DNA of 64,000 bases from an uncultured bacterium (lineage in GTDB: Bacteria; Armatimonadota; Hebobacteria; CAIYQO01): the NCBI GenBank assembly GCA_964472305.1, contig CAYYJR010000001.1:117220-181219 (forward strand). The letters run 5' to 3'. The translations under genes were made by a program, and so were the position numbers. Shown here piece after piece: positions 7,795 to 52,609 of this stretch. Every line of letters begins with the position of its first letter. Position 1 is the stretch's first letter. Below the pieces are notes generated by a model that was given only the letters and a program-made list of their open reading frames with translations, did not search any database and was not told the DNA's origin.

Positions 7795-9471
<1,677 letters not shown>

Positions 9472-9906: not shown

Positions 9907-9917
9907 ATACAGGGGTT

Positions 9918-9945: not shown

Positions 9946-9992
9946 GGGGAGAGTGCTAAAAAAATTGGAGTATTGTCGAAGGAATCGCTGTG

Positions 9993-11132: not shown

Positions 11133-11567
11133 ATGCGTTTCGCACGCCGCGGATTCACCCTGATCGAAATCCTAATTGTCGTAACCATCATCTCCGTGCT
11201 GATGCTGATCATCATCCCGCGGGTCATGCTGGCGACGACGCAGGCGCGCGAGGACGCGCTGAAGGAAAATCTGCGGCACATGCGGCTGGCAGTGATGCTG
11301 TTCCAATCCGATACCGGCGGCTATCCGACTGCCCTGGAGCAACTGGTGGTGCCGCGGCACCATGCCGCCTCCTTGCTGCCGGAGAAGGATGCCACCGGCA
11401 TGCCCATCAGCGCGGAAGGCTATCGCGGTCCGTATCTCAATCCCGCGCGCATGCCGACCGATCCCTTCACCCGCACCGGCACCTGGGGCTACGACCCGAC
11501 CACCGGCGAAATTACCAGCTTATCCGATCGCACCGCCATCGACGGCTCGCATTACTCCCAGTGGTAA
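11133..11567 (+). CDS. prepilin-type N-terminal cleavage/methylation domain protein (type II secretion pseudopilin / type IV pilin-like)
   Basis: MRFARRGFTLIEILIVVTIISVLMLII carries the class III signal motif G/FTLIE. RBS GGGGGAG upstream. Confidence 0.75.
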   Translation: MRFARRGFTLIEILIVVTIISVLMLIIIPRVMLATTQAREDALKENLRHMRLAVMLFQSDTGGYPTALEQLVVPRHHAASLLPEKDATGMPISAEGYRGPYLNPARMPTDPFTRTGTWGYDPTTGEITSLSDRTAIDGSHYSQW

Positions 11568-11845
11568 CCTGCGTTCGTCACGCAACAGTTCTCGACGGTT
11601 CAGCGAGGGTGTTTCAGTCGTCACTCCGGAACGGAACTACTGTCCCCTCCCCGTCTCGGCGCAGCACTGCCCGCCTCTTTTCACCTGTCCCGTCGGGACA
11701 ACCGTATGCACGGCCGTGGCTTGCGGGGATGAAGCCGCCTGATGGCGCCGGTATTTCCGCAGAACTGATCCTCCGCAGACAAAACCGCCGGGAGGTATCA
11801 TCAATACCTTCCGGCGGCATAACGGTTTGAGACTCGACGGTTTCC

Positions 11846-13168: not shown

Positions 13169-13354
13169 AGTTAAACCTCCACTTCACATTGCGCCGGCAA
13201 GGGCCGACGGAAAATTCGTACATAGGGTAGCCAATATTGGTGGATTTCGTCAATGCGGACGGGAGGGGTGACCAGTGACGGGTGCGCAGTGTCCGGTGAC
13301 AAGCGATGGGTGATCACCAGCGTGTGGAACAGGGTGACGATCACTGGTGAGTCA

Positions 13355-32956: not shown

Positions 32957-33515
32957 ATCTCCTCACCCAACAGCGCCCGGATTCAACAAGGCTGATTTTA
33001 TTTTCCCAGAAACAAATGTTCTACACGAGGTCGCGATGACAATGATTCGCATGGCAAAACGCGGGTGGATACCGGGTGCGCGCCGCCCGGCATGCTGCGG
33101 TCGAGATGGCGCAGATGCTGCCTATTTGCTCTCGTCGTATTGATCGGTTCAGCACGCCGAGGACACTTGCTTGCGCCCGTGACGAAAATCCGGTACACTC
33201 TCGTGGTAGGAAAACCGCGTCGTCTTCCTCGTGACTCTTCACACTCCGTTTGGGTTTGGCTTTGCGCCGGTGTCTGGTGCCTGTGGTAGCCGTCCAAATT
33301 TTTCAGAGACGGCAAGATGACAACGCAGGGATCAGCCATACGGGTGGCCTGGATGCGCAAGGACAATTGTCTGTTGCGCGGCTCCACGCTGCACGCATCG
33401 GCATCCGCTTCTTATTTCCCGATCCGTTCGGTAGCCTGGGTGCCGTCCGACGTGTGTGCCAACCGTCCGGGAAATTGGTTTCCATACTTTAACAGGATGG
33501 TTGGCTGAGGATACG

Positions 33516-35333
33516 ATGCGATATACTGAATTTCCCCTGGACGACCGACTGCAACGAGCACTCGCCACGGCCGGATTTGTCTCGCCGACACCTATTCAAG
33601 CCGCGGCGCTGCCGGTGGCGATGGCCGGACGTGACCTGGTGGGTACGGCACAGACCGGCACCGGAAAAACGGCAGCTTTTGTGCTGCCCATTCTGCAGCG
33701 GCTTATCGCGCTGCCGCTGGAAAGCCGCAAGACCCGTGCGGTGATTCTGGCCCCCACCCGCGAACTGGTAGAGCAGATTCTCGCCATGGTGCGCGAACTG
33801 GGCATCCATACCAACGTGCGCACCGTCGCCGTCTACGGCGGCGTCGCCATGCATCAGCAGACACGCGCCTTGCGGAATGGCGTGGAACTGGTTATTGCCT
33901 GCCCGGGCCGCCTGCTCGATCATATCAACCGCCGTAACACCGATTTTCGTCAACTGGACTGCCTGGTGCTGGATGAAGCGGACCGCATGTTGGATATGGG
34001 ATTTCTGCCGTCGATTCAGGAAATCCTCGAGCATGTGCCCGACAAACGGCAAACCATGCTCTACTCCGCCACCTTCCCGAGATCACTGAACGCCTTCGTG
34101 CAGCAGACGCTGCGCGATCCCGTGCGCGTGGAAGTAGATACCGCGGTGCCGGCGCAAACAGTGCGCCATACCCTGTATCAGGTTAATCACGGCATGAAAA
34201 CTGCCATGCTCACCAGTCTGTTGCGTCAACTGATTCCGGATTCGGATTCGGTGCTCATCTTCACGCAAACTCGCGTGACCGCCAATCAGGTAGCCGCCGA
34301 CCTGTATGCCGCGGGCATGCACGCGGATGTGTTGCATGCGGAAAAAACGCAACGGGCACGCCAGGATACGCTGGATCAATTCCGCGCCGGTGTCTTTCCC
34401 TATTTGGTGGCGACGGATATCGCCGCGCGGGGCATTGATGTGACCAGCATCTCACATGTGATTAATTACGACATCCCGGGCAAAGCCGATGATTATCTGC
34501 ATCGTATCGGACGCACCGGGCGCATGGAGCGCGCCGGTCACGCCATCTCACTGATGACCAGAGGGGATATTCGTTCCGTGCGCGAGATCGAGCGCATGCT
34601 CGGGAAGCGCATTGAGATTGCACAGTTGGAGAACGACTCTGCAGGGATGAACGACGACGGCGCCTCCCCGCACGATGATATGGCGCGCCCGCGGGCAGCT
34701 ACCCGTGCCGCGTCGCATCCTTCACGGCGCCAGGACGAGGAACGTCCACGCTGCGCGCCGCGCCGCGATACGCCCATGGCGTCCGCTGGGCGTGCCGACC
34801 GTCCGGAACGCGCGCGACATGCCGATGCGCCGCGAAATGAACGTTCCGACCGGAGATCGGCGTCAGACGCCCCCGCGCGGGCGGCACGTCCGGGCAAACA
34901 CCACGTTGACGCGGCGCCCCCCCGTGCCGACCATTCGCAGCGCCGGCATGACACGGAGCCACTGTCACGGAAAGAACGTCGCCGCATTCAATTCGGTGAA
35001 AATCCGACAGCGCGATCACCGCAATCCGAGCCGGTGGACCGTCGGCACCGAGATGGAGAAGCAACCTCTGCACCACGACGACGGGAACATGCCGCGGAAC
35101 ACCGTGATACCGCGGCGGCGCCTTCCGAGACGCCGCGCCGCGAGCGTTCCGGTGGGAAACATTTCACCGGCATGGCGGCAGTTGCCAGGCATAACCGGAA
35201 ATTCGCCGGGACAAAACGCCAACCCGGCGAGGTATCATCCGGCCCGCGCCCACATGCAAAAGCCGCTGCCACGCATCAATCCGCTGCCGTGCATGCCACG
35301 CATGCAAAACGACAGGCCGGTCGCGGACGATAG
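33516..35333 (+). CDS. DEAD-box ATP-dependent RNA helicase with ~250-aa Arg-rich low-complexity C-terminal tail
   Basis: Q motif (FVSPTPIQ), Walker A (AQTGTGKTAAF), DEAD (VLDEADRM), SAT and HRIGRTGR motifs. RBS GAGGA upstream of MRYTEF. Confidence 0.9.
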   Translation: MRYTEFPLDDRLQRALATAGFVSPTPIQAAALPVAMAGRDLVGTAQTGTGKTAAFVLPILQRLIALPLESRKTRAVILAPTRELVEQILAMVRELGIHTNVRTVAVYGGVAMHQQTRALRNGVELVIACPGRLLDHINRRNTDFRQLDCLVLDEADRMLDMGFLPSIQEILEHVPDKRQTMLYSATFPRSLNAFVQQTLRDPVRVEVDTAVPAQTVRHTLYQVNHGMKTAMLTSLLRQLIPDSDSVLIFTQTRVTANQVAADLYAAGMHADVLHAEKTQRARQDTLDQFRAGVFPYLVATDIAARGIDVTSISHVINYDIPGKADDYLHRIGRTGRMERAGHAISLMTRGDIRSVREIERMLGKRIEIAQLENDSAGMNDDGASPHDDMARPRAATRAASHPSRRQDEERPRCAPRRDTPMASAGRADRPERARHADAPRNERSDRRSASDAPARAARPGKHHVDAAPPRADHSQRRHDTEPLSRKERRRIQFGENPTARSPQSEPVDRRHRDGEATSAPRRREHAAEHRDTAAAPSETPRRERSGGKHFTGMAAVARHNRKFAGTKRQPGEVSSGPRPHAKAAATHQSAAVHATHAKRQAGRGR

Positions 35334-35803
35334 CGCATTACGATAACAGGCGATGCGGTTTGTCGTTTTCGCGTTCACTCCGGAGATGACGAAATGTGAA
35401 GCGTAACCTTCTCGGTGACCCCGGATACACCAGTATCCGGGGTCGCCTGACGTGAATCCCATCCCACTGGCCATCCGGAGATGGCCGGGAGCACCCCATC
35501 GGTCTTGATGCGTTGTTACCACTGTCACCCCTCCCATTTTTGAAACACTTTTGCAGTATTGGCACACCGACAGGGTCGCCCGGTGCTTGGCTGACGGTCA
35601 TTTTGCGAAAACGACCAATTCAAACCGCATCGGATGGGGAGCACTGTCAGGAAAGGTGTGAGCGAAAGCATGACGAATAGTCTTGCTTTGGTGAATGAGA
35701 TAAGCTGGCGTATTTCGTAATTTAGACCTCTTCATGTTATGTAATGCAGGAAATTGAGCGATGCCGCGGCACTCGCACAGCAGCAGCGAATGAGTTTACG
35801 GTA

Positions 35804-36478
35804 ATGCTGATGACAGATGGTACTCAAGATGCCGGATCGGTTCACACCTCGTCTGTGGCGGCTCCTTCAGGTAGAAAATTGGCGAATGAGGAGCAGCTCA
35901 CCTTGCTGGTACGTCGTTTTCAACTTGGCGATGGCCATGCATTCGAGACGCTGCTCGAACACGTCACTCCGTGCATCACTCCGATTATCTCCCGCTTCGC
36001 TCGTCATCACGCTGACGCCCAGGATGTTATGCAGGAAGTCGCGATTCAACTGTTGCGTGCATTACCGCGCTTTCGCAGTGAATGCCAGGTGTCAACTTTC
36101 ATCTATCGCGTGACGCTCAACGTCTGCATGAATTGTAAAAAGCGGTGGGCGCATACACCGTTGACATTCACCGATATTGCTTTCGCTGACACCGATGAAC
36201 CATGCGACCGCACACTATCCGTACCCCCGTATCCCACCCCCGAGCATGCTTTCATACAGAGAGAGCGGGAGGAAGTCTTGCACGCGTTGATTTACAGTCT
36301 CGATCCCAAGTTTCGCGCGGTCCTGGTCTTGACGGATATCTGTGGGATGAGTCAGCAGGAAATTGCCCAGATTATGCAAACCCCGCTGAACACCGTGAAA
36401 ACGCGACAGAAACGGGCGCGGGATGCGATGCGAAAAAAAATTCTCGCGCGGCAGGAACTATTTGACCGTGTCGGGTGA
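35804..36478 (+). CDS. RNA polymerase sigma-70 factor, ECF subfamily
   Basis: Region 2 (LVRRFQLGDGHAFETLL...QDVMQEVAIQLLRALPRF) and region 4 (DICGMSQQEIAQIMQTPLNTVKTRQKRAR). The track ORF starts at 35744; start chosen at MLMTDG, uncertain. Confidence 0.85.
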   Translation: MLMTDGTQDAGSVHTSSVAAPSGRKLANEEQLTLLVRRFQLGDGHAFETLLEHVTPCITPIISRFARHHADAQDVMQEVAIQLLRALPRFRSECQVSTFIYRVTLNVCMNCKKRWAHTPLTFTDIAFADTDEPCDRTLSVPPYPTPEHAFIQREREEVLHALIYSLDPKFRAVLVLTDICGMSQQEIAQIMQTPLNTVKTRQKRARDAMRKKILARQELFDRVG

Positions 36479-37611
36479 CGAAGGTGAGTATGCAGTGTCG
36501 CCAGATATCAGCACAGATCATCGCCTATCTGAAAGGTGAACTCGCGCGGGAGGAAGCCACGCGCGTTACATCGCATCTCGCCGCCTGCCCGCGGTGCCGT
36601 GATGAAGCACGCGTGCTGGGCAACGCTTTCAGCGAGATGGCACGGCTGCCGACCTTTCGCGTCACTTATGACATTCACGCGATCGAGGCGGGGGCCTGGC
36701 GTCAGCCACCGGCGGCGCCCATCCGCCAGTGGTGGAAACTTGTGCCCGCGGTCGCCTGTGCCGCCGTGATTGTCATTATGGGATTCCTGGTCTATCATCG
36801 CATCTCGACCACACGGATCGCGCAGCGTCCAAGGCTATCCCCGCGTTCGCCCGCGCCCGCGGTTGCGCCCCGGCCCAAGGTTCCCGTTCGTATGGGGCCG
36901 GACGAAAGTGATCAACCGCACATCGCGATGCGCCGGCACGAAGAGCGCCAGGTGGTGGCTGACAACCGGCGCCATGCACACCGGCAGGTGGCACCCCGGC
37001 AGCAACGCACGGCGCCACGCGCTGAACGGCAGCACGCGACCCCGCGTGGAACGGTACAGCATCCGCCGCGGCAGGAATCGGTTCCCCCCGTCGACGGGGA
37101 TGCGGTGATTGCGCAATACGTCGATACGCTGGCGCTGTGCATGACCCAATCCGATAATCCTCGCGCCTCAATTTCCTGTTCGATACTGCCGGTCGCCACT
37201 GCCGACGAACGGGATTTGCCCGTCGCTGACTCGCTGACCGCCGCGCTGGTGTGCGCGTTCAATGACCGGCATGTCACAATCGATATCAAGCGGTTGGCCC
37301 CGTTGGCGACGACGGCTGATCTGCAAACACTGACGCCGAATGCCGCCACCCTCGCACGCCTTGCCGACACGGTAACGGGTGATTATGTGATTGCCGGGCA
37401 CTTGAAAAAGGCGAAAGCCGGGTATGTGCTATCGCTCTATGCCTTCGACAAGCAGGGGCAGTCGATGGTCTTTGACGGCGACCATCCGATTTTATTGCCG
37501 TCCAGTGTGATACCCCGGTTCAGCGACATAATCAGTCACGGCATGATGCGCACGATCGCGATCGCATCCGCCGCGAAACACCGTCAACAATACCGGCAAT
37601 CATGCTCCTGA
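36475..37611 (+). CDS. anti-sigma factor with ZAS zinc-finger, one TM helix and a periplasmic TolB-N/LpoB-like C-terminal domain
   Basis: 4-nt overlap with the sigma gene. HLAACPRC ZAS motif. TM WWKLVPAVACAAVIVIMGFLVY. C-terminal ...TVTGDYVIAGHLKKAKAGYVLSLYAFDKQGQ pattern. Confidence 0.8.
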   Translation: MTKVSMQCRQISAQIIAYLKGELAREEATRVTSHLAACPRCRDEARVLGNAFSEMARLPTFRVTYDIHAIEAGAWRQPPAAPIRQWWKLVPAVACAAVIVIMGFLVYHRISTTRIAQRPRLSPRSPAPAVAPRPKVPVRMGPDESDQPHIAMRRHEERQVVADNRRHAHRQVAPRQQRTAPRAERQHATPRGTVQHPPRQESVPPVDGDAVIAQYVDTLALCMTQSDNPRASISCSILPVATADERDLPVADSLTAALVCAFNDRHVTIDIKRLAPLATTADLQTLTPNAATLARLADTVTGDYVIAGHLKKAKAGYVLSLYAFDKQGQSMVFDGDHPILLPSSVIPRFSDIISHGMMRTIAIASAAKHRQQYRQSCS

Positions 37612-37684
37612 TCCGGGAACTATTTTCCATCGCCGGCGTACAAAGCAAGCAAATCAACGTTATCTATCCCAAGGAGGTAGCAGC

Positions 37685-38659
37685 ATGAGATTCGTAGCTC
37701 GAATACACAGGGGTCTGCTCATTTCCGTCCTGGCACTTTGCGGTCTGACCGGTGCGTTCGCGCAGGCGGCGACCACGACGAAGGTGTCCGTTGAAGTCAC
37801 CAATGTGGTGGATGTCATCGGCGACGGAAAGATCGACTGGTCAAAAGAAGAGATTCGCGCACGGGGCATCGGTTTTGCGCCCAAGTTCGCGAAAACCCCC
37901 GGTCAGATGACCGTGCTGGCGCGGGAAGCGGCACTGGTCGCGGCGGAACGCAACCTGCTGAAGGTAATAAATGGCGTGCATGTCACGTCGGAAACGACGG
38001 TCGAAAACCTGGAAGTGACGCAGGATATCATCAAGACAAGTGTGAAAGGTCTCCTGAAAGGCGCGGTGATCGTCAGCGAGAAGCCGTTTGGCGAGAATGG
38101 CTACGAAGTGGTGCTGGCCGTGAATCTTTATGACGAGAAAAATGCTCTGTCGCAGAGCATTGATCTCCCCGTCCAGTTCAAAGCGGCGAATCCGGGTGTC
38201 ACGATTGTCCCGACCACGCCGAAGGAAGATCCGAAGTCCGACATTACGCCCGTGATTACGCCCCCGGTTACCCCATCGGTTACGCCCTCCGCTCCCGAAC
38301 AGCAGCCGGAGCGTTATACCGGACTCGTCATCGATTGCCGCGGGCTCGGTCTGGCGCGCTCCATGTGTCCCCGCATCCTCGATCAGACTGGGGGGAATCT
38401 CTGGAGTACCTCGATGGTGTCTGTGGAACTTGTCAACGAACGGGGTATTGCGGGTTACTTCACGACGCTGGATGATCCTGCCTTGCTTGATCGCGTCGGC
38501 AAACACCCGCTGGTGGTGACGGCGCTGCGACTTGGGGGCGGCAAGCAATTCAAAACGGATGCGATTGTCAGTCCGGCGGATGCGGAGTTGATCCGTACGG
38601 AAAATCAACAGGCCTTGTTCCTCGACAAATTGAATGTCGCCTTCCTGACCGAAAATTAA
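37685..38659 (+). CDS. secreted LPP20-like domain protein with Pro/Thr linker and unknown C-terminal domain (cluster gene 1)
   Basis: RBS GGAGG. Signal peptide with a possible lipobox (LALCG). N-terminal domain ...VHVTSETTVENLEVTQDIIKTSVKGLLKGAVIV...YEVVLAV fits the LPP20/FlgP pattern. Confidence 0.7.
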   Translation: MRFVARIHRGLLISVLALCGLTGAFAQAATTTKVSVEVTNVVDVIGDGKIDWSKEEIRARGIGFAPKFAKTPGQMTVLAREAALVAAERNLLKVINGVHVTSETTVENLEVTQDIIKTSVKGLLKGAVIVSEKPFGENGYEVVLAVNLYDEKNALSQSIDLPVQFKAANPGVTIVPTTPKEDPKSDITPVITPPVTPSVTPSAPEQQPERYTGLVIDCRGLGLARSMCPRILDQTGGNLWSTSMVSVELVNERGIAGYFTTLDDPALLDRVGKHPLVVTALRLGGGKQFKTDAIVSPADAELIRTENQQALFLDKLNVAFLTEN

Positions 38660-38701
38660 CCGCGCCGTGGCGCGTAGCGAATGATTGAAAAGGAGTATCC
38701 C

Positions 38702-39514
38702 ATGAAACGATATGTTCTCTGGCTCAACTGTCTGGTGCTGTTGCTGGCTGCGGTGAGCGCGCTGGCGGCGCCCGCCGAAAAAGTGAACCCGACACCAAAA
38801 TGTAATAAGCGTGCCATCCTCTGGCGCTCCCTTGATATGCCGGCGAATGCCCATGACGGCGATATCTGGATCAATCCCATCGACGGCATGGAGATGGTGT
38901 ATATCGGCAAGGGTTCCTTCCGCATGGGCAGCAATGAAGTCGCCGATGAGCGACCCTATCATAAAGTCAGCACCAAAGCATATTGGATCGCCAGGTACGA
39001 GGTGAGCGTAGCGCAATATCGCAAATTCAGCGAAATCACCAAACACCCGATGGCGGCTATGCCGGATGTGCGCTGGCTGGAGAATTCGCCGATCGTGAAC
39101 GTCGATTGGAACGACGCGGTCGCTTACGGCAAGTGGGCGAACGGCCGCCTGCCGTCCGAAGCCGAGTGGGAAAAAGCGGCGCGCGGGCGAAAAAGCCAGA
39201 TTTATCCCTGGGGCAATGCCTGGGATGCCGCTCGCTGCAATAACGGGTTGGAAGGGAAGAATGCGCCGATGAAAGTCGGCAGCTTCCCCGCCGGCGTCAG
39301 TTTCTATGGCGTGATGGATATGGCGGGTAATGTCAGCGAGTGGTGTGACGGCGTCTATGAGAAGCAAGGTGATCTCATGGACTATCGCGTTCTCCGCGGC
39401 GGCTCCTGCCATGACATCACCTCGAACGCGTATCGCGCCAGCCGGCGCGATTACCTGTCCCCCGCCACCCGCGCGAATGTCATCGGCATGCGCTACGTGA
39501 TGGATGCCCGGTAA
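38702..39514 (+). CDS. secreted FGE-sulfatase (SUMF1/GldK-like fold) domain protein (cluster gene 2)
   Basis: RBS AAGGAG. Signal peptide MKRYVLWLNCLVLLLAAVSALAAPA. Family hallmarks: RGGSC, NLGFR-like and WEKAARG/YPWGN motifs. Confidence 0.75.
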   Translation: MKRYVLWLNCLVLLLAAVSALAAPAEKVNPTPKCNKRAILWRSLDMPANAHDGDIWINPIDGMEMVYIGKGSFRMGSNEVADERPYHKVSTKAYWIARYEVSVAQYRKFSEITKHPMAAMPDVRWLENSPIVNVDWNDAVAYGKWANGRLPSEAEWEKAARGRKSQIYPWGNAWDAARCNNGLEGKNAPMKVGSFPAGVSFYGVMDMAGNVSEWCDGVYEKQGDLMDYRVLRGGSCHDITSNAYRASRRDYLSPATRANVIGMRYVMDAR

Positions 39515-39578
39515 CGACGAAGCGCAGCGCGGAAACAGGAAGCTACCGCTCGCTTCTCGAATGCTGAAAGGAAATACC

Positions 39579-40751
39579 ATGCGACACTATATTCATTGTG
39601 TCCCATTTTGGCGGATGCTCGCTGCCGTTCTCCTCACCCTGATGCTGGTGTTTGCCGTGAGCCTTGCCGTCATGGCGCAGGACGGCAAGGCGGAGTCCGA
39701 GTTCAAAACGGTCGTCGCGCAGGGCGTCGGCGCCGGTCCGGATCGTGCCAAAGCCCGCGACGATGCGATACAGGATGCCCAGCGCAAAGCGGTGGAACAG
39801 GGATTGGGCCTGTATATTAAGTCCGAGACGGTGGTGAACAACCTGGAACTGGTTTCCGACACGATTTATAAAGACTCCGCCGGTTTCGTGCACACGTATA
39901 CCGTGACCGCCGAGAATTATGATGACGCCAAGGACCTGTACTGGGTAAAAATCACTGCCAAGGTGTCCCTGCAGCGGTTGGAAAATCGGCTGGACGATCT
40001 GTATGACAAGCTGAAGATCGCCGGAAATCCGCGCATCATCATGGCGCTCAACGGCACCGACAGCCTGCGCGATCCCGACGGCATCGTGAATGCGTTGACC
40101 AGCGAGATGGTGGAGAAAGGCTATAAAGTCATCGACGAGGATCAGCTCACGTCCGTGCGGCAGAAAGACGCGTTGCGCCTGATTCGCCAGGGGGAAGTCG
40201 ATGCCAATACGGTGATGCTGCTGCAGGATAAAGCGGACATCATCATCACCGGCAAGGTGTCGGCGGATAATCCCGAGCGCATCATGGACGATCCGGCTAC
40301 CTTCTCGCAGAAGGTGACCTTGGACGCGAAAATCATCCGGACGGATACCGCCCAGATACTGGGCGCCAAACGCGGCCTCGGGGTGGGCGCGGCATTCTCG
40401 ACCAAGGCGGCGCTGGAAGCCGCGGAAGATAAAGTCGGCGCCGACTATTTGAGCAAGAATCAACGCACGCTGTTGCGCGCCGTGCTCGACCCGTGCAAGG
40501 AATATACGGTCAAAGTGGCGCCCTGCACCTTCGCCCAGTTGTCCGCCGTCGAGAGCAAGCTCATCCAGTCGCGCTTCGTCCGCCAGGCGGATGCGCGCTT
40601 CGAGGAAGGCTATGGCGTGCTGACGGTCTCGTTCACCGGCAATGCCAAAACGCTGGCCATGCACCTGGAATCGCATATCGGGAAAGAAATTCGCCTGAAG
40701 GTGATTTCCGTCACCGGGGTGACGGTGATGGTGAAACCCGTCGCCGAGTGA
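39579..40751 (+). CDS. secreted LPP20-like plus TolB-N/CsgG/LpoB-like two-domain protein (cluster gene 3)
   Basis: RBS GAAAGGAAAT. N-terminal TM/signal sequence. GVGAGPDRAKARDDAIQDAQRKAVEQGLGLYIKSETVV LPP20 pattern. A central domain ending in an (I/V)xGxVS motif. The track ORF starts earlier, at 39504. Confidence 0.7.
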   Translation: MRHYIHCVPFWRMLAAVLLTLMLVFAVSLAVMAQDGKAESEFKTVVAQGVGAGPDRAKARDDAIQDAQRKAVEQGLGLYIKSETVVNNLELVSDTIYKDSAGFVHTYTVTAENYDDAKDLYWVKITAKVSLQRLENRLDDLYDKLKIAGNPRIIMALNGTDSLRDPDGIVNALTSEMVEKGYKVIDEDQLTSVRQKDALRLIRQGEVDANTVMLLQDKADIIITGKVSADNPERIMDDPATFSQKVTLDAKIIRTDTAQILGAKRGLGVGAAFSTKAALEAAEDKVGADYLSKNQRTLLRAVLDPCKEYTVKVAPCTFAQLSAVESKLIQSRFVRQADARFEEGYGVLTVSFTGNAKTLAMHLESHIGKEIRLKVISVTGVTVMVKPVAE

Positions 40752-40965
40752 AACGACCAGGGGAATGCCGGGTGGGTCGATATGGCTTGTCGGATGCAAG
40801 CACATGTCTATCTGGAGATACGGACCTGCTCGACCACACGACTACCGTCACGCCCTGACAAATACAGGAGGCATGGTGTATCATATCTGGTCGTAGGAGC
40901 ATGATCGCCTGCCCGGCATTCTTTCAATGTGTTTATACATTTCACAGTAAGGAGGACACCTACAG

Positions 40966-41934
40966 ATGATCCGTATAATCGTATCATTGCTGCTGCTGGC
41001 AGTCGGCCTATCGGCGTTCGCACAAGGCTCGGGGGATTTGCGTAGCGGAGAAAGGCCGTTTAATTATGAATTCGCTAAACGAGTTACCGGTGCCGGATGG
41101 ACTTACAAAGGTGAAGCTACCATTACTGGAATACTCTTTGATAATTACGGATTGATCGAGCATATATATCAAAATGTCGATTGGATAACTTTCAATATTA
41201 CCGGTTGGGATCACTTCGTCGCATATATCGGCATCTCGGATGATAAAACAGGCAATAGCGATATTGTCATCGAGACAGACGGCACGCAGGTTTTCTCACG
41301 AAAGGTCACTGCCGGCGACAGGGCCGTTGCCATCGATATCCCGCTCACCGGGCGCAAGACGATGACGATACGTGCGAAAACCCCGGCGATTTTCGCTGAT
41401 CCCAAGTTGGTGAAAGGAAACCCAACACAACCTCCTGTACAACAACCATCAACCTCATCAACTACAATACCCCCTTCACAGCCGGCCACCTTCGTGGTTG
41501 ATCCCAGCGATCTCGATAAACTCGCTTCGGCTCTGCGTAAGCGCGTAGACAACAAGCCGGAATTGAAGACGAAACTGGATAACGGTTTCATGGCGGTGAT
41601 GACGTTCAACCTGATCGACATCCCATCTGCATCTATCTCATTGAATGTCATCGAGGATTTGTCCACCCGCATGATTAACGCCGATTTTCAGCTTGTCGAG
41701 CGCGGGCAACTCGACAAGGCGTTGAAAGAGTTGAAGATACAAGATTCCGCCTTGATCGACCAGGCGACGGCGCAAAAACTCGGCCAACTTACCGGCTGCA
41801 ACTATATCCTCGTCGGCAGCGTCTCCGACCGCGGGCAGTTCATCGTGATGAACGCGCGCATCCTGGAGACGGCAACCGGCAAAGCCATCGCCGCCGAGAG
41901 CGTGGAGTGCCGGAAGATTCCGATCAATCGATGA
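40966..41934 (+). CDS. secreted protein with lower-GC N-terminal beta-sandwich-like domain, Pro/Ser/Thr linker, and C-terminal TolB-N/CsgG/LpoB-like domain (cluster gene 4)
   Basis: RBS AAGGAGG. Signal peptide. C-terminal AVMTFNLID...VERGQLDKALKELKIQ...AQKLGQLTGCNYILVGSVSDRGQFIVMNARILETATGKAIA. Confidence 0.7.
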   Translation: MIRIIVSLLLLAVGLSAFAQGSGDLRSGERPFNYEFAKRVTGAGWTYKGEATITGILFDNYGLIEHIYQNVDWITFNITGWDHFVAYIGISDDKTGNSDIVIETDGTQVFSRKVTAGDRAVAIDIPLTGRKTMTIRAKTPAIFADPKLVKGNPTQPPVQQPSTSSTTIPPSQPATFVVDPSDLDKLASALRKRVDNKPELKTKLDNGFMAVMTFNLIDIPSASISLNVIEDLSTRMINADFQLVERGQLDKALKELKIQDSALIDQATAQKLGQLTGCNYILVGSVSDRGQFIVMNARILETATGKAIAAESVECRKIPINR

Positions 41935-41974
41935 CCCTGTATGAGCACAGTCAATCCGTGAGAATGGAGGCATT

Positions 41975-43555
41975 ATGGGAAGGGTGTGGTTTGTTGTCGC
42001 CATGGTGATGGCCGGCGCGGTTTTCGTGCAGGCAGCGTCTGCGCAGGATGTCATGCGCACCGTGGCGGTCGCCATGGTGGAGCAGATTGTCGGGAATCCC
42101 GATGTCCAGCGGTTGCAGGGGAAGACGGTGGCCGTCGCGCGGTTTCGCAATCGCGGCACGGATGAAAATCTTGACGTGTCGGCCTTGCAGGATAAAGTCA
42201 TCACCGCGCTTGTGAAGGCGAAACTTTTCACCGTGGTCGAGCGCGAGCAACTCAACACGGCGCTGCAACAGTTGAAGATCGACGTTGCCAGCGGATTGAT
42301 CGACCGAAACGAGCAGAAGGAACTGGGCAAGTTTCTCTCTGCGGATTATCTGTTGATCGGCGTCGTATCCGGCGACAGCCTGCACCCGTCGGTGGACGCG
42401 CGCCTGATGAAAATCGAAACGGGCGCGCTGGTCGCGGCGGCCGAGTATCCGGCGGAGAACGGGCGCGGCGGCCTCCCGGGGGATCCCGGTCCCGCGGAGC
42501 CGACGCCCGCGGCGGTGAAGTCGACCATTCAACTAATTTCCTACAATACCAGCATCTTCACACTGTCTTCGACCGCCGACAAAGAGGCGGATGCTGGCAG
42601 CGATGCGATTCGCTGGCTGGTTGACCAGCGTATTTTCGCCGATGCCAAAGACGTGCTCGAACGCTGGACGCCCGAGATCACCGGCAAAATCTATCGCAGT
42701 CCCGCGCGGCTGGTCGCGAAAGTCACGCCCCGCGCGGACGCCTATTACCTGGATGTCAATTTCGCCCAGATGATGCGCGAACTGGTTTTCATTATCTTCG
42801 GCAAAGTCACTCCGCGTATCGCGGTCGATACATCGGAAACCATCCTGCGCCGCAATCCCCCCGATCCGGCGGTGAAAACCGTCATCGAAGGCGCATTCCT
42901 CAAATACGGCTTCCAAGTGGTTGATACCGACCGGGCAAAAATGGCGCTGTTGCGCGAGGCATTGCGCCAGACCGAGGCTGGCGACAGCCTGGCGCCCAAT
43001 CTGGTGAAACAGTATCTGGGCGAGGTGCAGAGCGATATCATCGCCGTGGGCGACAGTTTCGCGGAAGAACGCGCCGAGCGCGACGGATTCGATGCGCGCA
43101 TAGAGTTCAAACTCGTTGAGGTAAACACCGGGCGAGTGCTCGCGTCGATTGAGAATACCGCCACCCTGTCGCGAAAGGATTATCCAGCGGTGGATGTGAC
43201 GTCGAGCGTACTCGGCAAGTTGGTATTGCAGCGCGCCGCGGAGGGGACGACCATTCGCATGTGCGCCGACATCCTGAAGTCATACGGCCAACCGGTCTAC
43301 GCCGTGCGCGTGTGGCATATCGGCAGCCTGGCCAATAAGCGGACGATCGAGGAGTGCCTGACGGAGCAGTTGCCCGGCGCGACGGTGACGACAACGTCGT
43401 TAGATTTACGGGCGACGAACTGCGCGCTCTTCAGCGTCATGACGAAACGGACGGCTGACCAGGTTGCCGAAGCGTTGGAAAAGGTTCCCGGCCTTCACGT
43501 TGCCGTTACTGGCATCGACTGCCGCTCGATTGTGTGTGAAATACCGGTTAAATAG
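41975..43555 (+). CDS. secreted protein with N-terminal TolB-N/CsgG/LpoB-like domain and further degenerate copies of the same fold (cluster gene 5)
   Basis: RBS GGAGG. Signal peptide. VAVARFRN...VVEREQLNTALQQLKID...LGKFLSADYLLIGVVSGD. Later repeats (...DIIAVGDSF...LVEVNTGRVLAS). Confidence 0.7.
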   Translation: MGRVWFVVAMVMAGAVFVQAASAQDVMRTVAVAMVEQIVGNPDVQRLQGKTVAVARFRNRGTDENLDVSALQDKVITALVKAKLFTVVEREQLNTALQQLKIDVASGLIDRNEQKELGKFLSADYLLIGVVSGDSLHPSVDARLMKIETGALVAAAEYPAENGRGGLPGDPGPAEPTPAAVKSTIQLISYNTSIFTLSSTADKEADAGSDAIRWLVDQRIFADAKDVLERWTPEITGKIYRSPARLVAKVTPRADAYYLDVNFAQMMRELVFIIFGKVTPRIAVDTSETILRRNPPDPAVKTVIEGAFLKYGFQVVDTDRAKMALLREALRQTEAGDSLAPNLVKQYLGEVQSDIIAVGDSFAEERAERDGFDARIEFKLVEVNTGRVLASIENTATLSRKDYPAVDVTSSVLGKLVLQRAAEGTTIRMCADILKSYGQPVYAVRVWHIGSLANKRTIEECLTEQLPGATVTTTSLDLRATNCALFSVMTKRTADQVAEALEKVPGLHVAVTGIDCRSIVCEIPVK

Positions 43556-43567
43556 CAGGAGGACTCG

Positions 43568-45565
43568 ATGTTTTGTGGTGTCACATTTTTTTGTTCGCCC
43601 CGTATGCTCGGGGTGTTGATGCTGTGTGTCGTCACCGGTATCGCCGCACAGGCGGGATTGTACCAGCATTACATTATCGATCGTTCAGATGGTGGAAGCA
43701 TCTTTAAAGTTCCCTATTATGCTTACATCATCAGCAATATCCCGGAGCTGGATGTCATGCGTCCCATGTGTCGGACGGTGTTGATGCGGCGCCATAAAAA
43801 TACGCCCCACGTGTTGTATATCCCGCTGGCGCAAGTCGGGACATACGGCAGAAAAAAGACGGAGTTGCTCCCATACGATCACCTGAAGAACACGGAAACA
43901 GTGGTCGTGATCGACCGCTCCCGGTTGACCGATGCGGAGAAGACCGCGCTTGGCAAACTCCAACTCTATGTGTTCCCGCTTATGGCGCCGTTGCCGCAAT
44001 CCGGGTGTGTGCGCACCTGGGTGCAGACGACCGGAGCCGAGGAATACCAGGTATACGTTGAACTTCCCGAGGTGAGTTGGATCGAGCAGGCGGCGAATGA
44101 TTTGTGGGCATTGCCCAGCACGGCGCCGGTGAGCGTACAGCAGACGCTGGACATCGTACACAAAGTCTGCCGGACGGCGATGTTGTCCAACGATGCGCAG
44201 GCACGCAATGCGCTGCTCGCGGTCATTAAATACAGCCGGGTGCAATCGTTCACCCTGGACGATTACGAGAAGTTTGCCGGCCTCCGCGACGTCGATCAGA
44301 AATTGATCGCGTTGAATTGGAACGGCGAAGAAGAATGCACCGCCGAAATGGCGGTGCGAATTCTTCCACCGAGCTTGCGCGCGCCATGTCATTTGCAGAC
44401 GCCGGACCGCGTGGGACTGACGGGATGGCAGCGCTTCTGCCGGACGGCGGTGGCACGGCACGAAAAAGGCGAAGAGGATACCTGGGCTATCTGCGCGCCC
44501 ACCGCGCAGTTTCTCAATGAACTGGTTACCAAAGTGATTGCCCGTAATTTCGAAGGCGGACCCTACGATATACCGGTGTATGATCTCAGTTATATTACCA
44601 GCCTTGCGGTGGGCACATCCCTCGGGGTGGGCGATCCTGATCGCGAACGCTTGCTGCCCGGGCCAGTGCAGATGCAAATGGAGGAGGTTGCGGGAACGGC
44701 ATTTCGCATGAAAGTCCGCTCGATGGTTTCCACGCAGAACTGGGGTCGTGTCCTCGACGAAGCACTTGGCAAAAACGCCGACACGGATGATCCCTTGCGC
44801 AAGCCGGACACCATCCGCCGGGTCAATCAGGCCAGTAACACCGATGCAGTCCTGCTGCTTATGGTGCGCAAACTCTCTCCGCAGGTGACGTATACGTTCC
44901 CCCGTAATCGGATTACCGAACCTTATCCAGCGTTCACAGAAAAGGAACCGGATAAACCGAATAAGCCGGATGCCGACAGGCGTAAATCGCCATTCGGGCC
45001 GCATGTATATCCGGGTGAAGCACACAAAGATCGTGTCAACTCCCGTGAATATCAGGAAGACCTGGCGAAATATACCTATATCGAACTCCCCAAATGGGAG
45101 CGTGCGCGTGAGAAGTGGGAGCAAAATCGCCGGGAATGGGAGCGCGGGAAATCATCGTACCAGGTGAATTATGAGTTCGAGGTGGTCACCACCCCCGCGA
45201 TGTCGCTGGGTGGGCAACTGAAATTATTGGATATGTATGCCACGCAAAATGTGTTGTGGAGTACGGACGTGAACCTGGCCAGCAACGGTGAGCGGAAACA
45301 GATACTCACAATTCCGGTTCAGGTGACCGGCGAAGATACCGATCCCCCCCAACCGCGCGCGATGAACAATTATTCGAATAAATATACCTGGAGTGACTGC
45401 AGCGCCACAGTCGGTTCCGATACCGTTTACGGCATGGGGCAATCCCTGTTGGTCAGGTCATTACGGGACGGTGTCGCGGAACTGGTGAAGACGGCGCTCT
45501 GGTACACTGATTTGAAGCCATGGAGCCGGCCGGGAAAAACATCGCGCGGCACGCCATACGAATAA
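43568..45565 (+). CDS. large hypothetical membrane-anchored/secreted protein, 665 aa, no recognised domain (cluster gene 6)
   Basis: RBS AGGAGG 13 nt after the gene-5 stop. N-terminal hydrophobic segment. Lower-GC 5' end. Confidence 0.6.
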   Translation: MFCGVTFFCSPRMLGVLMLCVVTGIAAQAGLYQHYIIDRSDGGSIFKVPYYAYIISNIPELDVMRPMCRTVLMRRHKNTPHVLYIPLAQVGTYGRKKTELLPYDHLKNTETVVVIDRSRLTDAEKTALGKLQLYVFPLMAPLPQSGCVRTWVQTTGAEEYQVYVELPEVSWIEQAANDLWALPSTAPVSVQQTLDIVHKVCRTAMLSNDAQARNALLAVIKYSRVQSFTLDDYEKFAGLRDVDQKLIALNWNGEEECTAEMAVRILPPSLRAPCHLQTPDRVGLTGWQRFCRTAVARHEKGEEDTWAICAPTAQFLNELVTKVIARNFEGGPYDIPVYDLSYITSLAVGTSLGVGDPDRERLLPGPVQMQMEEVAGTAFRMKVRSMVSTQNWGRVLDEALGKNADTDDPLRKPDTIRRVNQASNTDAVLLLMVRKLSPQVTYTFPRNRITEPYPAFTEKEPDKPNKPDADRRKSPFGPHVYPGEAHKDRVNSREYQEDLAKYTYIELPKWERAREKWEQNRREWERGKSSYQVNYEFEVVTTPAMSLGGQLKLLDMYATQNVLWSTDVNLASNGERKQILTIPVQVTGEDTDPPQPRAMNNYSNKYTWSDCSATVGSDTVYGMGQSLLVRSLRDGVAELVKTALWYTDLKPWSRPGKTSRGTPYE

Positions 45566-45735: not shown

Positions 45736-46059
45736 TTACTCGTGCCGTGCAATTGCCGACATGTCGACCAGCGCGCCTTGCGCCCGCAGCGCCGCGCGCA
45801 AGGCATCCATCTCGATCCGCGCAAACGGGATGGCGCGCGCGGCAACCTGTGCCGCCACCACTCCCACGGCTTCGCCCATTGCCATCACCCGTAGCGGTCC
45901 CAGCACGTCGCACTCGACGCTCACCGCACGGCCCGGGCAGATAAGATTTTCGACCGGTTGGGGCAGCATGATGCGGTAGGGGATCGGTGTGACCGGCACC
46001 GTACGTTGAAAGTGCAATGGTGAATGCCGCATACAGCGATCCTTTCCGCCGACAACCAT
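45736..46059 (-). pseudogene. possible remnant: C-terminal fragment resembling an FAD-dependent oxidoreductase, with no upstream N-terminal domain
   Basis: 107-aa ORF ...LICPGRAVSVECDVLGPLRVMAMGEAVGVVAAQVAARA... in an otherwise ORF-poor 880-bp gap. The identification is weak. Confidence 0.3.
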
Positions 46060-46219: not shown

Positions 46220-46248
46220 TTGACAGGCATTGAACGCTGTGTTACACT
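46220..46248 (+). promoter_or_regulatory. sigma-A type promoter TTGACA-N17-TACACT, followed by a ~195-nt 5' UTR for the SLH-OMP gene
   Basis: ttgacaggcattgaacgctgtgttacact. Confidence 0.55.
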
Positions 46249-46445
46249 AGCCCATAGTAGGTCAGAGGAAGATCGCATCTCGAAACGGCGGTATCTCCCT
46301 TACTGATCGTCAAACGCTTTCGGTTATGGCGGTAGCTCGTACATCTTAGAATGGGCGCAAAGGAAATTTAGACAACTATTCGCCTCTTCACCCACGATGC
46401 CGGCATGGCCACATTCCAAGCTTTACTTTGAAGGAGGTACAACAC

Positions 46446-48260
46446 ATGAGAAAGTGGATCGGAGCCTTCGTGGTCTCCCTCCTGATCGCCTCCGCTTTCC
46501 CAGTATTCGCGGAAGGGCCATTCTCGGATGTCCCCGAGACGCACTGGGCTGCCAAAGCGGTTGCTGATCTTGCACAGGCCGGCATTCTGGAAGGCGTGCG
46601 CGTCGGAACGACGGCACAATTCCAGGGCACACGTCCCATGACCCGTTTTGAGATTGCCATGGCACTGGCGCGCGTGCTCGAAATTGTCGAAGGCGTGAAG
46701 CCTTCCACGCCAGGCAAACAACTCACCATGCAGGACGTGATCAACGAGATTCAGAACAACCCGCAGGTGCAGGCGAAACTGCGCGGTCCCGCCGGTCCCG
46801 CCGGCGCTCCGGGTGCTGTCGGTCCTGCCGGCGCTCCGGGTGCTCCGGGCGCGATTGGTCCTGCCGGTCCTGCCGGTACTCCTGGTACACCAGGCATCGC
46901 CGGTCCCGCCGGTCCTGCCGGTCCTGCCGGTCCTGCCGGCCCTCCGGGAAAAGGTTTGACTGACGAGCAGATTGCGCAGTTAACCAAATTGCTGACCACC
47001 TTCGGGCCGGAAATCGCCGCGGTGCGCGGCGACATCCGCAGCTTGCAGGAGCGCGTCACTGCGCTGGAAGCGGCCGTGGGCAACAAAACCCCGCAATTGC
47101 GCACCAGCGTGCACGGCGCCATGCGCTTCGGCGTTCAGGGAAGCGGACTGGATTTCAGTGCCGGCGCTGACTCGAACACTAATGGCATTGAAGACTCGGT
47201 TGAAGCGATCGGCGCCCTTCCGGACTTTGCGAAAGACGCATCGAAGTCGTCGCGCTTCGGCGTTTACCAGACTGACGTGAATTTCGACGGTTCCGTGTCG
47301 GAGAATCTGGCCGGGCACCTGACCATGCGCATCGTCAGCCCGATCTCGGCAACGCCCGTCGGCAATCCTGTATACTCCGGAACTATCGTAGCCGACAATC
47401 TGCAGTTGTGGGATTGGTACGCGACCTTCAACGCGCCCCAGATCTTCGGTCAGAAGATCGCCGTGACGGCTGGTCGGCACTCGACCATCATCGCCCAGGG
47501 CCTGGCGGTCGACACCAATCGGCGCCCGCTGGCCGGCATCTCGCTTGACAGCGGCACCGGCAACTATACCTACGGCGCGAACTTCTCGACCAATGACGGC
47601 CACAGCCCGGTCATGTATGGCTACCTGGGCTACAATATCGGCGATTTGTCCGATACCCTGACGAACTGGAACGTGGTTGGCAATTACATGCCGCGCGGTC
47701 TTGCGGGCGAGAGCGTATGGAACATCGGCGCGGAAGGCAACATTGCCGGCTATCGCGTGTTCGGTGAATATGCGCATGAGAATCTAGGTGCCATCAGTGG
47801 TTTGTTCAGCGATTTGGATAATCGCGGGGCACTCGTCATCGGCGCTGACGTGCTGAATAACTGGAACGGTCTGAATATGACCGCGCGGATCGGGAAAATT
47901 GGAGCCGGATACACCAACACCACCGGCATTCTGAATCCGTATACTTCGGCGAACGCGTTCGATCTCGATTGGGTCGATCGTCCGCTCTTCCTGAGCCAGA
48001 CCAATGTCACCGATGGGTGGGAAACTGATTTCCATTACACCTACGGGAAAGACACCCTGCTGCGCGCTCGCATTTATGGCGGGTTCGGCGATCAGAATGC
48101 CGGGGCGTCGGGCGATACCGCCCTCATCCTGTCGGCGAAGAAACCCATCGCCACTGGTGTCGCCGCCAATCTGCTGTGGGGTTACCGCGGCATTTCCGTG
48201 CCCACCGATAGCGCGAGCAACCTGCAAGTGTTGCGCGCCGGTCTTGAATTCACGCTGTAG
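46446..48260 (+). CDS. outer-membrane protein: signal peptide, SLH domain, collagen-like Gly-X-Y segment, coiled coil, C-terminal beta-barrel-like region (OmpM/Slp-like)
   Basis: RBS GGAGG. SLH motif [25 protein letters not shown]...[13 protein letters not shown]. 19 GPA/GAP triplets. A coiled-coil stretch [41 protein letters not shown]. The C-terminal ~400 aa has an alternating hydrophobic pattern. Confidence 0.8.
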
Positions 48261-51961: not shown

Positions 51962-52609
51962 TCAGGCGATTACCATCATGCTCTTCAGCGACTTGCCGAT
52001 TTTGCGTTTGGCGCGCTGCAGGGCGTTGTCGATGGACTTCACCCGGCGATTCAACTCCACCGCGATTTCCTGATACGATTTGCCTTCCAGATGGCTGCGC
52101 AGCACGGCGCTTTCCAGGCTGGACAGGTCACGGCGAATGCGGCGGCGCAAATCGTCGGAGAATTGCTGGGTAATCACCACTTCTTCGGGATCGCTGGTGG
52201 CTGTTTCGGCGAGTGTATCGAGCAGGGTGCGGTCGGAATCGGAGTCGAACAGATTGGTATGCAGGCTGACGTAGGAATTGAGCGGAATGTGTTTCTGGCG
52301 AGTGGCGGCCTTGATGGCGGTGAAGATCTGACGGCTGATACATAACTCGGCGAAGGCACGGAACGGCAGCATGCGGTCGTTGCGGAAATCGCGGATCGCT
52401 TTGAACAGGCCGATCATGCCTTCCTGCACGATGTCTTCATGGTCAGCGCCGACCAGGAAATAGGAGCGCGCTTTTCCTTCAACGACACTGCGGTATTTAC
52501 AGAGAAGATGCTCGGTGGCCAATTGCGAGCCTTCCTTGGCATAGATGACGACCTCTTCATCGCCCATTCCGTGGAAATTGACGAAGTGATCGCGTATCGT
52601 CAAAAACAT
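51962..52609 (-). CDS. sigH: RNA polymerase sigma factor SigH (sigma-H, early sporulation/stationary-phase type)
   Basis: KARSYFLVGADHEDIVQEGMIGLFKAIRDF and FRAFAELCISRQIFTAIKAATRQKHIPLNSYVSLHTNLFDSDSDRTLLDTL closely match my recollection of Bacillus SigH region 2 and the following segment. Confidence 0.8.
   Translation of the reverse strand: MFLTIRDHFVNFHGMGDEEVVIYAKEGSQLATEHLLCKYRSVVEGKARSYFLVGADHEDIVQEGMIGLFKAIRDFRNDRMLPFRAFAELCISRQIFTAIKAATRQKHIPLNSYVSLHTNLFDSDSDRTLLDTLAETATSDPEEVVITQQFSDDLRRRIRRDLSSLESAVLRSHLEGKSYQEIAVELNRRVKSIDNALQRAKRKIGKSLKSMMVIA

Follow-up and report, generated by a model that had tools for sequence, protein, structure and literature searches.

High-torque flagellar motors can carry extra disks or rings made of FlgP, FlgT and FlgO. 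Here we compare with these proteins the products of an eight-gene cluster at 35744-45565 of a 64-kb stretch of DNA, hereafter the window, from an uncultured bacterium of the Armatimonadota (GenBank assembly GCA_964472305.1, contig CAYYJR010000001.1, forward-strand positions 117,220 to 181,219). In Vibrio cholerae the rings beneath the outer membrane have C26 symmetry for FlgT and C58 symmetry for FlgP and FlgO (bioRxiv 10.64898/2025.12.02.691832). In Campylobacter the concentric rings of the basal disk are made of FlgP alone, and an insert in the protein builds the continuous beta-sheet of the ring and is said to correlate with ring formation (PMC12222027). Two further proteins enter the comparison. 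The surface lipoprotein LipL46 of Leptospira has been studied as an adhesin or antigen. Tp0624 of Treponema pallidum begins with a D1-D2 tandem unit that has been called uncharacterised; about 50 proteins of other bacteria with D1 and D2 only were already noted, and D1 was not recognised as LPP20/FlgP-like (PMC5104382).

The cluster encodes an extracytoplasmic function (ECF) sigma factor, a zinc-binding anti-sigma (ZAS) factor and six secreted proteins, here called g1 to g6. Among the latter, g1 contains a FlgP-type domain, g2 has the fold of formylglycine-generating enzymes (FGE), g3 is FlgT-like, g4 and g5 contain LpoB-like domains, and g6 belongs to a rare family. A shared LpoB-like fold is used by PelC and CsgG, whose rings beneath the outer membrane are 12-mers and 9-mers, respectively. 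We found no description of this gene combination in the searchable literature, and nothing relevant there on Armatimonadota flagella or envelope.

FlgT- and FlgP-like proteins

An AlphaFold2 model of g3 (39579-40751, + strand), with a predicted local distance difference test score (pLDDT) of 81 and built from 17 sequences, has FlgT as its best PDB matches (Foldseek E 1.6e-10 to 3w1e and 6e-10 to 8z5n_0, ~380 columns each). These alignments span the whole length of both proteins, although identity in the structure alignments is only 11-14%. The model divides into N (42-130), M (152-303) and C (306-388) domains, in parallel with the published FlgT boundaries (24-109, 121-287 and 292-377), and the N-M-C architecture of FlgT is thus found in it: N is SHS2/LPP20-like, M is LpoB/TolB-N-like, and C is a small alpha/beta domain. 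As modelled, g3 is a full-length three-domain structural homologue of FlgT. On the sequence side, Pfam FlgT_N reaches 17.4 bits in g3 against a cut-off of 28.8, FlgT_M and FlgT_C were not detected, and four members of the g3 family have a precomputed FlgT_N match. The g3 family profile matches FlgP (E 4.9e-6) through the N domain; this match and the hhalign results for the middle domain agree with a first-pass annotation of the window, which had described g3 as an LPP20-like plus a TolB-N-like domain. The LipL46 model NF033164 matches residues 38-260 of g3 with E 6e-9, at 35.1 bits against a cut-off of 400.

In the product of g1 (37685-38659, + strand) a Pro/Thr linker connects an LPP20/FlgP SHS2 domain (aa ~35-147) with a domain of the Tp0624 D2 type (aa ~200-324). 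Taken singly, g1 matches Pfam LPP20 (PF02169) weakly, at 16.4 bits versus a cut-off of 25.9. The g1 family profile A4, made from 33 sequences and searched against the PDB, finds Campylobacter jejuni FlgP (9hmf_C) with E 1.3e-22 and Vibrio FlgP chains with E 1e-9 to 2e-12, and PF02169 is present in many g1 homologues. The LPP20-like domain noticed at first pass is therefore weak in the single sequence and strong in the family profile, and g1 belongs to the LPP20/FlgP SHS2 family at family level. The same profile matches T. pallidum Tp0624 (5jir_B) with E 5.2e-19, aligning profile positions 38-297 to chain residues 11-263; because this match covers both g1 domains, we equate g1 with the D1-D2 tandem unit of Tp0624, whose D1 thereby becomes recognisable as an LPP20/FlgP SHS2 domain. 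Profile A4 runs gap-free through FlgP residues ~110-140 (9hmf_C), the beta-hairpin/insert region that builds the ring.

Conservation of the cluster

A GTDB-wide scan with g3 yielded 14 loci, and further contigs came from exact-protein look-ups. The loci, roughly 20 kb long in the Armatimonadota relatives, were mapped with the window proteins and with module profiles. The cluster recurs, whole or in large part, in at least eight further Armatimonadota loci, and the named closest homologues of g1, g3 and g6 are labelled Armatimonadota. In L011 the whole order is found (sigma, anti-sigma, g1, g2, g1', g3, g4, g5', g5, g6), and L006 has sigma, anti-sigma, g1, g2, g3, g1' and g5 before it runs into the contig end. 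Locus L022 contains sigma, anti-sigma, g1, g1', g3 and, after intervening genes, g5 and g6, with a caspase-CsgG-PEGA-FGE gene further on; L021 has sigma, anti-sigma, g1 and an FGE gene. At the P0044 locus (GCA_041443025.1) the sigma and anti-sigma genes are divergent from a series of FGE, g1 and, further along, LpoB-like, g6-like and LpoB-like genes. Large parts of the cluster are found in L007, L005 and L010, and L002 has g5 and g6 only. The g5-g6 pair is kept in L002, L011, L022 and the P0044 locus, and probably also in L003, a contig that ends within g5 and retains only its C-terminal 135 residues ahead of g6. The co-conservation expected at first pass is thus seen across genomes.

Genes of the g1 and g3 types are adjacent, or one gene apart, in Armatimonadota, in one contig each of Acidobacteriota (L008, with g4 between them) and Thermotogae (L012), and in L020. 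Accessory genes vary, and include caspase-PEGA(-FGE) fusions and CarboxypepD_reg, Big_2, beta-helix and PKD proteins. This pairing of g1 and g3 across phyla amid variable accessories points to a functional core of FlgP-like, FlgT-like and LpoB/FlgO-like proteins; the Armatimonadota version typically adds the sigma and anti-sigma genes, g2 and g6.

Several variants were seen on the way. Locus L020 has a compact one (9499-13172) with genes for a PilZ protein, a g1-type protein, a g3-type protein with FlgT_N, a PEGA protein and a FecR-domain protein; a FecR-type sensor here takes the place of the ZAS anti-sigma factor, and no sigma gene lies within 10 kb. In Nitrospirota, lone FlgT-like (g3-type) genes (L015, 9923-11236; L016, 4688-5905; L018, 4182-5516) adjoin PilZ, CheX/CheC or CheW-LysM genes, and these relatives may be associated with motility. 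Secreted fusions of Peptidase_C14 (caspase), CsgG-like and PEGA domains, often with FGE-sulfatase, are encoded in L007 (4651-7155), L022 (19799-20966) and L019 (4032-6740, 9910-11985 and 12221-14146).

Regulation

The sigma gene (35744-36478, + strand) could start at 35744, 35804 or 35903, the last being the choice of the gene caller. Its product has regions 2 and 4 only (Pfam Sigma70_r2, Sigma70_r4_2 and Sigma70_r4) and scores 80.8 bits on the NCBIfam sigma70-ECF model TIGR02937, whose cut-off is 42.9. Sigma orthologues lie directly 5' of the cluster in L006, L011, L021 and L022, and divergently at the P0044 locus. The co-oriented gene that adjoins it (36475-37611, + strand) encodes a protein with zf-HC2 (E 5.3e-10) and an N-terminal HxxxCxxC zinc finger, readable as HLAACPRC, so the pair has the features of an ECF sigma factor and its ZAS anti-sigma factor, in keeping with the original annotation. 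The anti-sigma factor is a single-pass protein, with a transmembrane helix at aa ~88-108, a linker rich in Pro, Arg and Gln, and an extracytoplasmic C-terminal domain at aa ~226-345 that is kept in L006, L007 and L011. Comparison of this outer domain with the LpoB-like module gives hhalign probabilities of 46-77% (E 2e-5 to 2e-4), which is suggestive of a further LpoB-like copy.

An ECF-type promoter motif, GGGAAC-N16-CGTAC, lies at 37615-37641, between the anti-sigma gene and g1 and ~45 nt 5' of the g1 start. The classic ECF promoter has an AAC-containing -35 element and a CGT-like -10 element, an architecture that this motif fits. Its general form is GGGAAC, 15-16 nt, nnTAC, and it is kept 5' of g1 in six other loci. 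It stands in the same place in L011 (GGGAAC-N16-TTTAC at 4043), L006 (GGGAAC-N16-GATAC at 8041) and L007 (GGGAAC-N15-GATAC at 391). Upstream of g1, L010 has GGGAAC-N16-TCGAC, L022 has TGGAAC-N16-TTTAC, and L019 has the GGGAACTTTT -35 element in common with the window. The full motif is also present in L002, at 8269, ~70 nt 5' of the orphan g5-g6 pair, and no sigma gene is nearby. Over both strands of the window the exact pattern is found twice, where 0.62 occurrences are expected, and a given 100-nt upstream stretch would contain it by chance with a probability of ~5e-4; its recurrence in several divergent lineages, AT-rich ones included, is therefore no coincidence. This sigma factor would use the GGGAAC-N16-CGTAC promoter, and the dependence of the operon on it, suspected from the start, gains independent support from the conserved motif 5' of g1.

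Scans of the cluster for sigma-70 promoters and terminators gave counts at chance level, and only a chance-level sigma-70-like site was seen in the 214-nt gap between g3 and g4. Upstream of the sigma gene there is only a weak GTAAC-N16-GATAC site at 35403, and we claim no autoregulatory promoter. The 3' end of the sigma gene contains a second motif, GGAACT(A/T)TT, in the window (36453-36478), L006 (7015-7041), L021 (8794) and L022 (8752). The motif there codes for the conserved C-terminal (Q/R)ELF, and either coding constraint or an internal ECF promoter for the anti-sigma gene may account for it. The window has a second gene for an ECF-type sigma factor (Sigma70_r2 and r4_2) at 51962-52609 (- strand), ~6 kb downstream of the cluster.

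Gene order and export

Gene coordinates are based on the listing of open reading frames (ORFs) of the window and on independent gene calls from an identical Logan contig. Both place all eight ORFs co-directionally on the + strand, and the tight packing noted at first pass was confirmed: the gaps from the anti-sigma gene through to g6 are 73, 42, 64, 214, 40 and 12 nt (the gap between g1 and g2 is 21 nt if g2 starts at 38681). The 4-nt overlap reported between the sigma and anti-sigma genes holds with the GTG start at 36475, and is replaced by an 11-nt gap with the ATG at 36490; in L011 and L006 the orthologous genes share 4-8 nt. AGGAGG ribosome-binding sites were seen 5' of g1 and g4. Translations read by eye show a charged start, a hydrophobic stretch and an AxA-type site at the N-termini of g1 to g6, which are thus signal-peptide-like, as had been claimed.

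Modules of the secreted proteins

Iterative jackhmmer searches and hhalign comparisons, with profiles that share members and a small database, placed the domains in two sets. An SHS2/LPP20 module forms the N domains of g1 and g3. An LpoB/TolB-N-like module forms the middle of g3, the C-terminal domain of g4, the N-terminal domain of g5 and an internal g5 copy, with hhalign probabilities of 99.7-100% within the set; single-sequence phmmer already links these domains (E 1e-7 to 1e-10). Between the LPP20-like and LpoB-like modules the hhalign probability is 0.1%. The first-pass annotation had seen one small alpha/beta domain recurring in five proteins; we reject a single recurring domain on this value, and what the sequences support instead is two unrelated modules in four proteins.

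In the g4 product (40966-41934, + strand) a Pro/Ser/Thr linker joins an NPCBM-like carbohydrate-binding module (aa 74-137) to a FlgO/LpoB/CsgG-N-like domain (aa 186-313). The Pfam scores of g4 in bits, with the gathering scores in brackets, are CsgG 34.4 (20.8), FlgO 31.0 (22.6), NPCBM 31.1 (23.9) and LpoB 29.5 (22.3); membership of FlgO (PF17680) would be at clan level only, since the same stretch scores higher on CsgG and similarly on LpoB. The g5 product (41975-43555, + strand) matches LpoB with E 9e-15 (55 bits) and CsgG with E 1e-11, and reaches 21.1 bits on FlgO, under the cut-off. One LpoB-like domain of g5 is N-terminal (aa 28-160), and a second copy, at aa ~296-392, scores 55-96 bits in iterative searches; the C-terminus of g5 resembles the C domain of g3 through a weaker link (hhalign probability 75%, E 2.6e-5). 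The CsgG/LpoB-like copies predicted for the C-terminus of g4 and the N-terminus of g5 thus exceed Pfam gathering scores.

Two named families were considered for g4 and g5 and set aside. The matches cover positions 53-99 (g4) and 12-98 (g5) of the 210 positions of the CsgG profile, which is the periplasmic alpha/beta part only, and so imply no channel; with transmembrane hairpins absent and no curli genes in the window, a CsgG-type channel was rejected. LpoB proper was rejected because the TIGR02722 equivalog scores (59.4 bits for g5, 33.2 for g4) are below the cut-off of 110.55, a lipobox is missing, and the class A penicillin-binding protein (PBP) of the window lacks a detectable UB2H domain. 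That protein (58477-60915, - strand) shows Transgly and Transpeptidase domains only. UB2H is the docking site for LpoB in Escherichia coli PBP1b.

Sequence searches with g6 (43568-45565, + strand; 665 aa) gave no Pfam or NCBIfam match. Its family is rare, with 76 cluster representatives among 1.84 billion proteins, and has no Pfam coverage; it is a new protein family. The AlphaFold model of g6 matches the PelC, CsgG and LpoB folds, which suggests that the protein holds alpha/beta modules of this type. The earlier statement that g6 has no recognisable domain is therefore right for sequence searches and not for the model. Relationship to the LpoB-like module by sequence was rejected: in hhalign comparisons of four g6 segments with the cluster modules nothing exceeded 20% probability, a profile search of PDB sequences returned only noise, and the link is one of predicted fold. 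The g6 homologues P0002, P0083 and P0094 have a C-terminal Cu_amine_oxidN1 ('copper amine oxidase N-terminal-like') domain, as have the g6-type genes of 813-850 aa in L022 and at the P0044 locus; g6 of the window is without it.

The FGE-sulfatase fold of g2 (38702-39514, + strand) is clear (PF03781, E 3.6e-46). The catalytic, copper-binding Cys pair of FGE has the form C-x4-C, which is CHESYC in the T. curvata enzyme. On alignment to that enzyme g2 has CHDITS, the second catalytic Cys being replaced, as it is in three g2 orthologues, and an active FGE was rejected on this ground. A comparison of g2 with PorK/GldK made at first pass comes down to generic FGE-fold similarity: the score on GldK TIGR03525 is 75.1 bits against a cut-off of 350, PorK chains align to g2 over residues 155-230 only, and no genes of the type IX secretion system (T9SS) were found in the window. 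Scores on EgtB and PvdO models are also far under their cut-offs. By these criteria g2 would be neither PorK nor a working FGE.

Neighbouring genes

No flagellar, curli or T9SS genes were found among the large ORFs scanned across the window, the remainder of which has housekeeping functions, and no pel, curli or tol genes were found near the cluster. The first-pass annotation had reached the same view of the window and had asked whether the cluster might be the flank of a known flagellar, curli or T9SS locus, which in the window it is not; of its domain assignments, LPP20, CsgG/LpoB/FlgO and FGE are supported by the searches above.

It had also placed the cluster directly upstream of a gene for an SLH-domain porin (46428-48260, + strand). 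This gene starts 863 nt downstream of g6, and between the two lies a 107-aa ORF (45736-46059, - strand) that matches only positions 346-416 of the 416 of FAD_oxidored (PF12831) and is probably a truncated gene remnant. The porin has a collagen-like Gly-Pro-Ala repeat tract (aa ~120-175) and weak similarity to cyanobacterial iron-uptake (SomB-type) porins, and its gene has a sigma-70-like site with a TG extension at 46220-46248. In both relatives whose sequence runs past g6, no such porin gene follows. Given the distance, the intervening reverse-strand fragment, the separate sigma-70-like site and the missing adjacency in these two relatives, the porin was rejected as a member of the unit, and its neighbourhood is probably incidental.

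Immediately 5' of the cluster is a DEAD-box helicase gene (33456-35333, + strand) whose product has a ~200-aa C-terminal tail rich in Arg, Ala, Pro and His. Elsewhere in the window, an 851-aa protein (4323-6878, - strand) shows the unusual combination of a Peptidase_C39-like domain at its N-terminus with a Y_Y_Y domain.

Interpretation

The gene order, the domain homologies and the conservation of the cluster and of its promoter motif are observed. For their function we propose an ECF-induced, oligomeric scaffold, periplasmic or associated with the outer membrane and related to FlgO/P/T rings, a proposal that we think about as apt to be right as wrong. It is favoured by the conserved cluster and ECF-type promoter, by the signal-peptide-like starts of all six products, by the possible LpoB-like outer domain of the anti-sigma factor, and by the resemblance of g1, g3, g4/g5 and, in its model, g6 to the ring formers FlgP, FlgT, FlgO and PelC/CsgG, respectively. 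The cluster would be a self-contained regulon in which the single-pass ZAS anti-sigma factor holds the ECF sigma factor. Once released, the sigma factor would drive the promoter just 5' of g1, with transcription through to g6. This would yield six Sec-exported, non-lipidated envelope proteins built from the two modules together with NPCBM, Tp0624-D2 and a degenerate FGE fold. Here g1, g3 and g4/g5 would correspond to FlgP, FlgT and FlgO of the Vibrio H-ring. The products would co-assemble into a ring or lattice attached to the wall or the outer membrane and produced when an envelope signal calls for it; the NPCBM module of g4 would bind sugars, and the anti-sigma factor may read the state of assembly through its paralogous LpoB-like domain. 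Of the 'envelope assembly system' proposed at first pass, homology to ring-forming proteins and co-conservation are borne out; assembly is what we infer.

Several observations weigh against a scaffold. FlgP, FlgO, LpoB, PelC and CsgG are lipoproteins, whereas the translations, read by eye, contain a canonical lipobox in none of g1 to g6; the g1 N-terminus, ...LALCGLTGAFAQA, has no [LVI][ASTVI][GAS]C lipobox and has instead an AxA signal-peptidase-I site. In the AlphaFold2 monomer of g3 the insert region forms helices and not a hairpin. The link between the anti-sigma outer domain and the LpoB-like module is under the usual confidence threshold. The make-up of the cluster varies by lineage, g2, g4 and g6 being dispensable and caspase, PEGA, PKD or Big_2 genes being added. 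The LpoB-like fold is also found in the non-ring proteins LpoB, LptE, PqiC and TolB, so that the fold alone implies no ring.

A second reading, which we judge unlikely, is an ordinary envelope-stress regulon of periplasmic proteins that act singly, for instance chaperones, binding proteins, or LpoB-like proteins that regulate peptidoglycan synthases or hydrolases. ECF sigma factors commonly control envelope maintenance genes, g5 reaches 55 bits on Pfam LpoB, many envelope proteins with the LpoB-like fold are monomeric (LptE, PqiC, TolB-N), and gene content differs between lineages. Yet g5 has 59 bits where the TIGR02722 cut-off is 110, the sole class A PBP of the window shows no UB2H docking domain, and the finding of FlgP-, FlgT- and FlgO-like genes together across phyla fits interacting partners better. 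If the proteins do act singly, the finding shrinks to a lineage-specific envelope-stress regulon.

Somewhat less probable again is that the cluster supplies accessory ring or disk parts of a machine with its core genes elsewhere in the genome, either a flagellar motor or some other trans-envelope structure. The full-length structural homology of g3 to FlgT, the FlgP-type domain of g1, the g4 score above the Pfam FlgO cut-off, the single Nitrospirota g3-type genes beside CheX, CheW-LysM or PilZ genes, and the PilZ gene that precedes the g1-g3 pair in L020 all speak for it. However, the gene tables and Pfam searches show no flagellar gene among the scanned large ORFs of the window or in the ~20-kb Armatimonadota loci. 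The sigma and anti-sigma factors and the ECF-type promoter that belong to the cluster are unlike described flagellar regulation, and the FGE-fold protein, NPCBM, the caspase-PEGA proteins and g6 have no flagellar counterpart. Nor are g1 to g6 lipoproteins, and neither LP-ring genes nor the FlgT partners MotX and MotY were found in the window.

The fusions of Peptidase_C14, CsgG and PEGA (and FGE) beside g1-, g3- and g5-type genes in L007, L019, L022 and the P0044 locus raise a further alternative, which we regard as improbable: a protease-less derivative of a wider extracytoplasmic caspase/FGE/PEGA system, with the LPP20-like and LpoB-like proteins as scaffolds, substrates or regulators of secreted caspase-like proteases that serve surface processing, programmed death or conflict. 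The caspase-FGE architecture is reportedly known from surveys. The large ORFs scanned in the window include no caspase, however, and L011 and L006 show none as far as they are sequenced; the core that is always kept is g1 and g3 together with LpoB-like proteins rather than the protease. None of the eight proteins matches a PADLOC defence model, and an anti-phage defence system was rejected on that ground.

A scaffold related to the FlgO/P/T rings is thus the reading we retain. In a more specific form, which is only tentative, it would be a non-flagellar periplasmic ring or lattice, not seen before, of FlgP-, FlgT- and FlgO-like subunits, governed by the ECF sigma factor and monitored by the anti-sigma factor, in Armatimonadota and, through the g1-g3 pair, in some Acidobacteriota and Thermotogae; it would be a free-standing relative, and possibly the source, of the H-ring and basal disk later recruited by high-torque motors. 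The cluster accordingly bears on the origin of the extra disks and rings of such motors, and the operon is a testable candidate for a role of FlgP, FlgT and FlgO modules outside any motor. It also gives a first context for the uncharacterised Tp0624 D1-D2 unit and for LipL46-like proteins, and a handle on the envelope biology of the poorly studied Armatimonadota, whose outer membrane appears to carry SLH-domain porins.

Comparison with known systems

Scores on the Pfam FlgT models and on the LpoB, GldK and LipL46 equivalogs stay below their cut-offs, and the cluster proteins thus lack several features that define those families. With PorK/GldK of the T9SS ring, and with true FGEs, g2 has only the FGE-sulfatase fold in common. 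Among named full-length families, LipL46 (NF033164) alone has sequence similarity to g3. The LpoB/CsgG/PelC/TolB-N fold occurs once in g3 (middle domain), once in g4 (C domain) and twice in g5, and is matched by the predicted modules of the g6 model; unlike CsgG, g4 and g5 have no transmembrane hairpins, and unlike LpoB they have neither an equivalog-level score nor a lipobox.

Tp0624 (PDB 5JIR) has the D1-D2 order of g1, and its OmpA-like D3 is absent from g1. The best sequence match of the g1 family is C. jejuni FlgP (PDB 9HMF chain C), which also matches the N domain of g3. It is a 171-aa single-domain lipoprotein (PMC12222027), whereas g1 is unlipidated and has the second, D2 domain. The flagellar context of FlgP proper was not found for g1, neither the window nor the related Armatimonadota loci having flagellar genes.

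The Vibrio H-ring of FlgT, FlgP and FlgO (PDB 3W1E, 8Z5N, 9YDS, 9YEF) differs from the cluster in that the latter has no flagellar genes in the window, is placed under ECF control and has no lipidation site, and in that it adds Tp0624-D2, NPCBM, an FGE-fold protein, g6 and several paralogues. The likeness is in the three building blocks, encoded together and all extracytoplasmic: g3 resembles FlgT over its whole length and in the same domain order, g1 resembles FlgP in the SHS2 domain, and g4 and g5 have a FlgO-type domain. By this analogy we infer that the cluster encodes scaffold proteins of the H-ring/basal-disk type in a non-flagellar, ECF-regulated setting.

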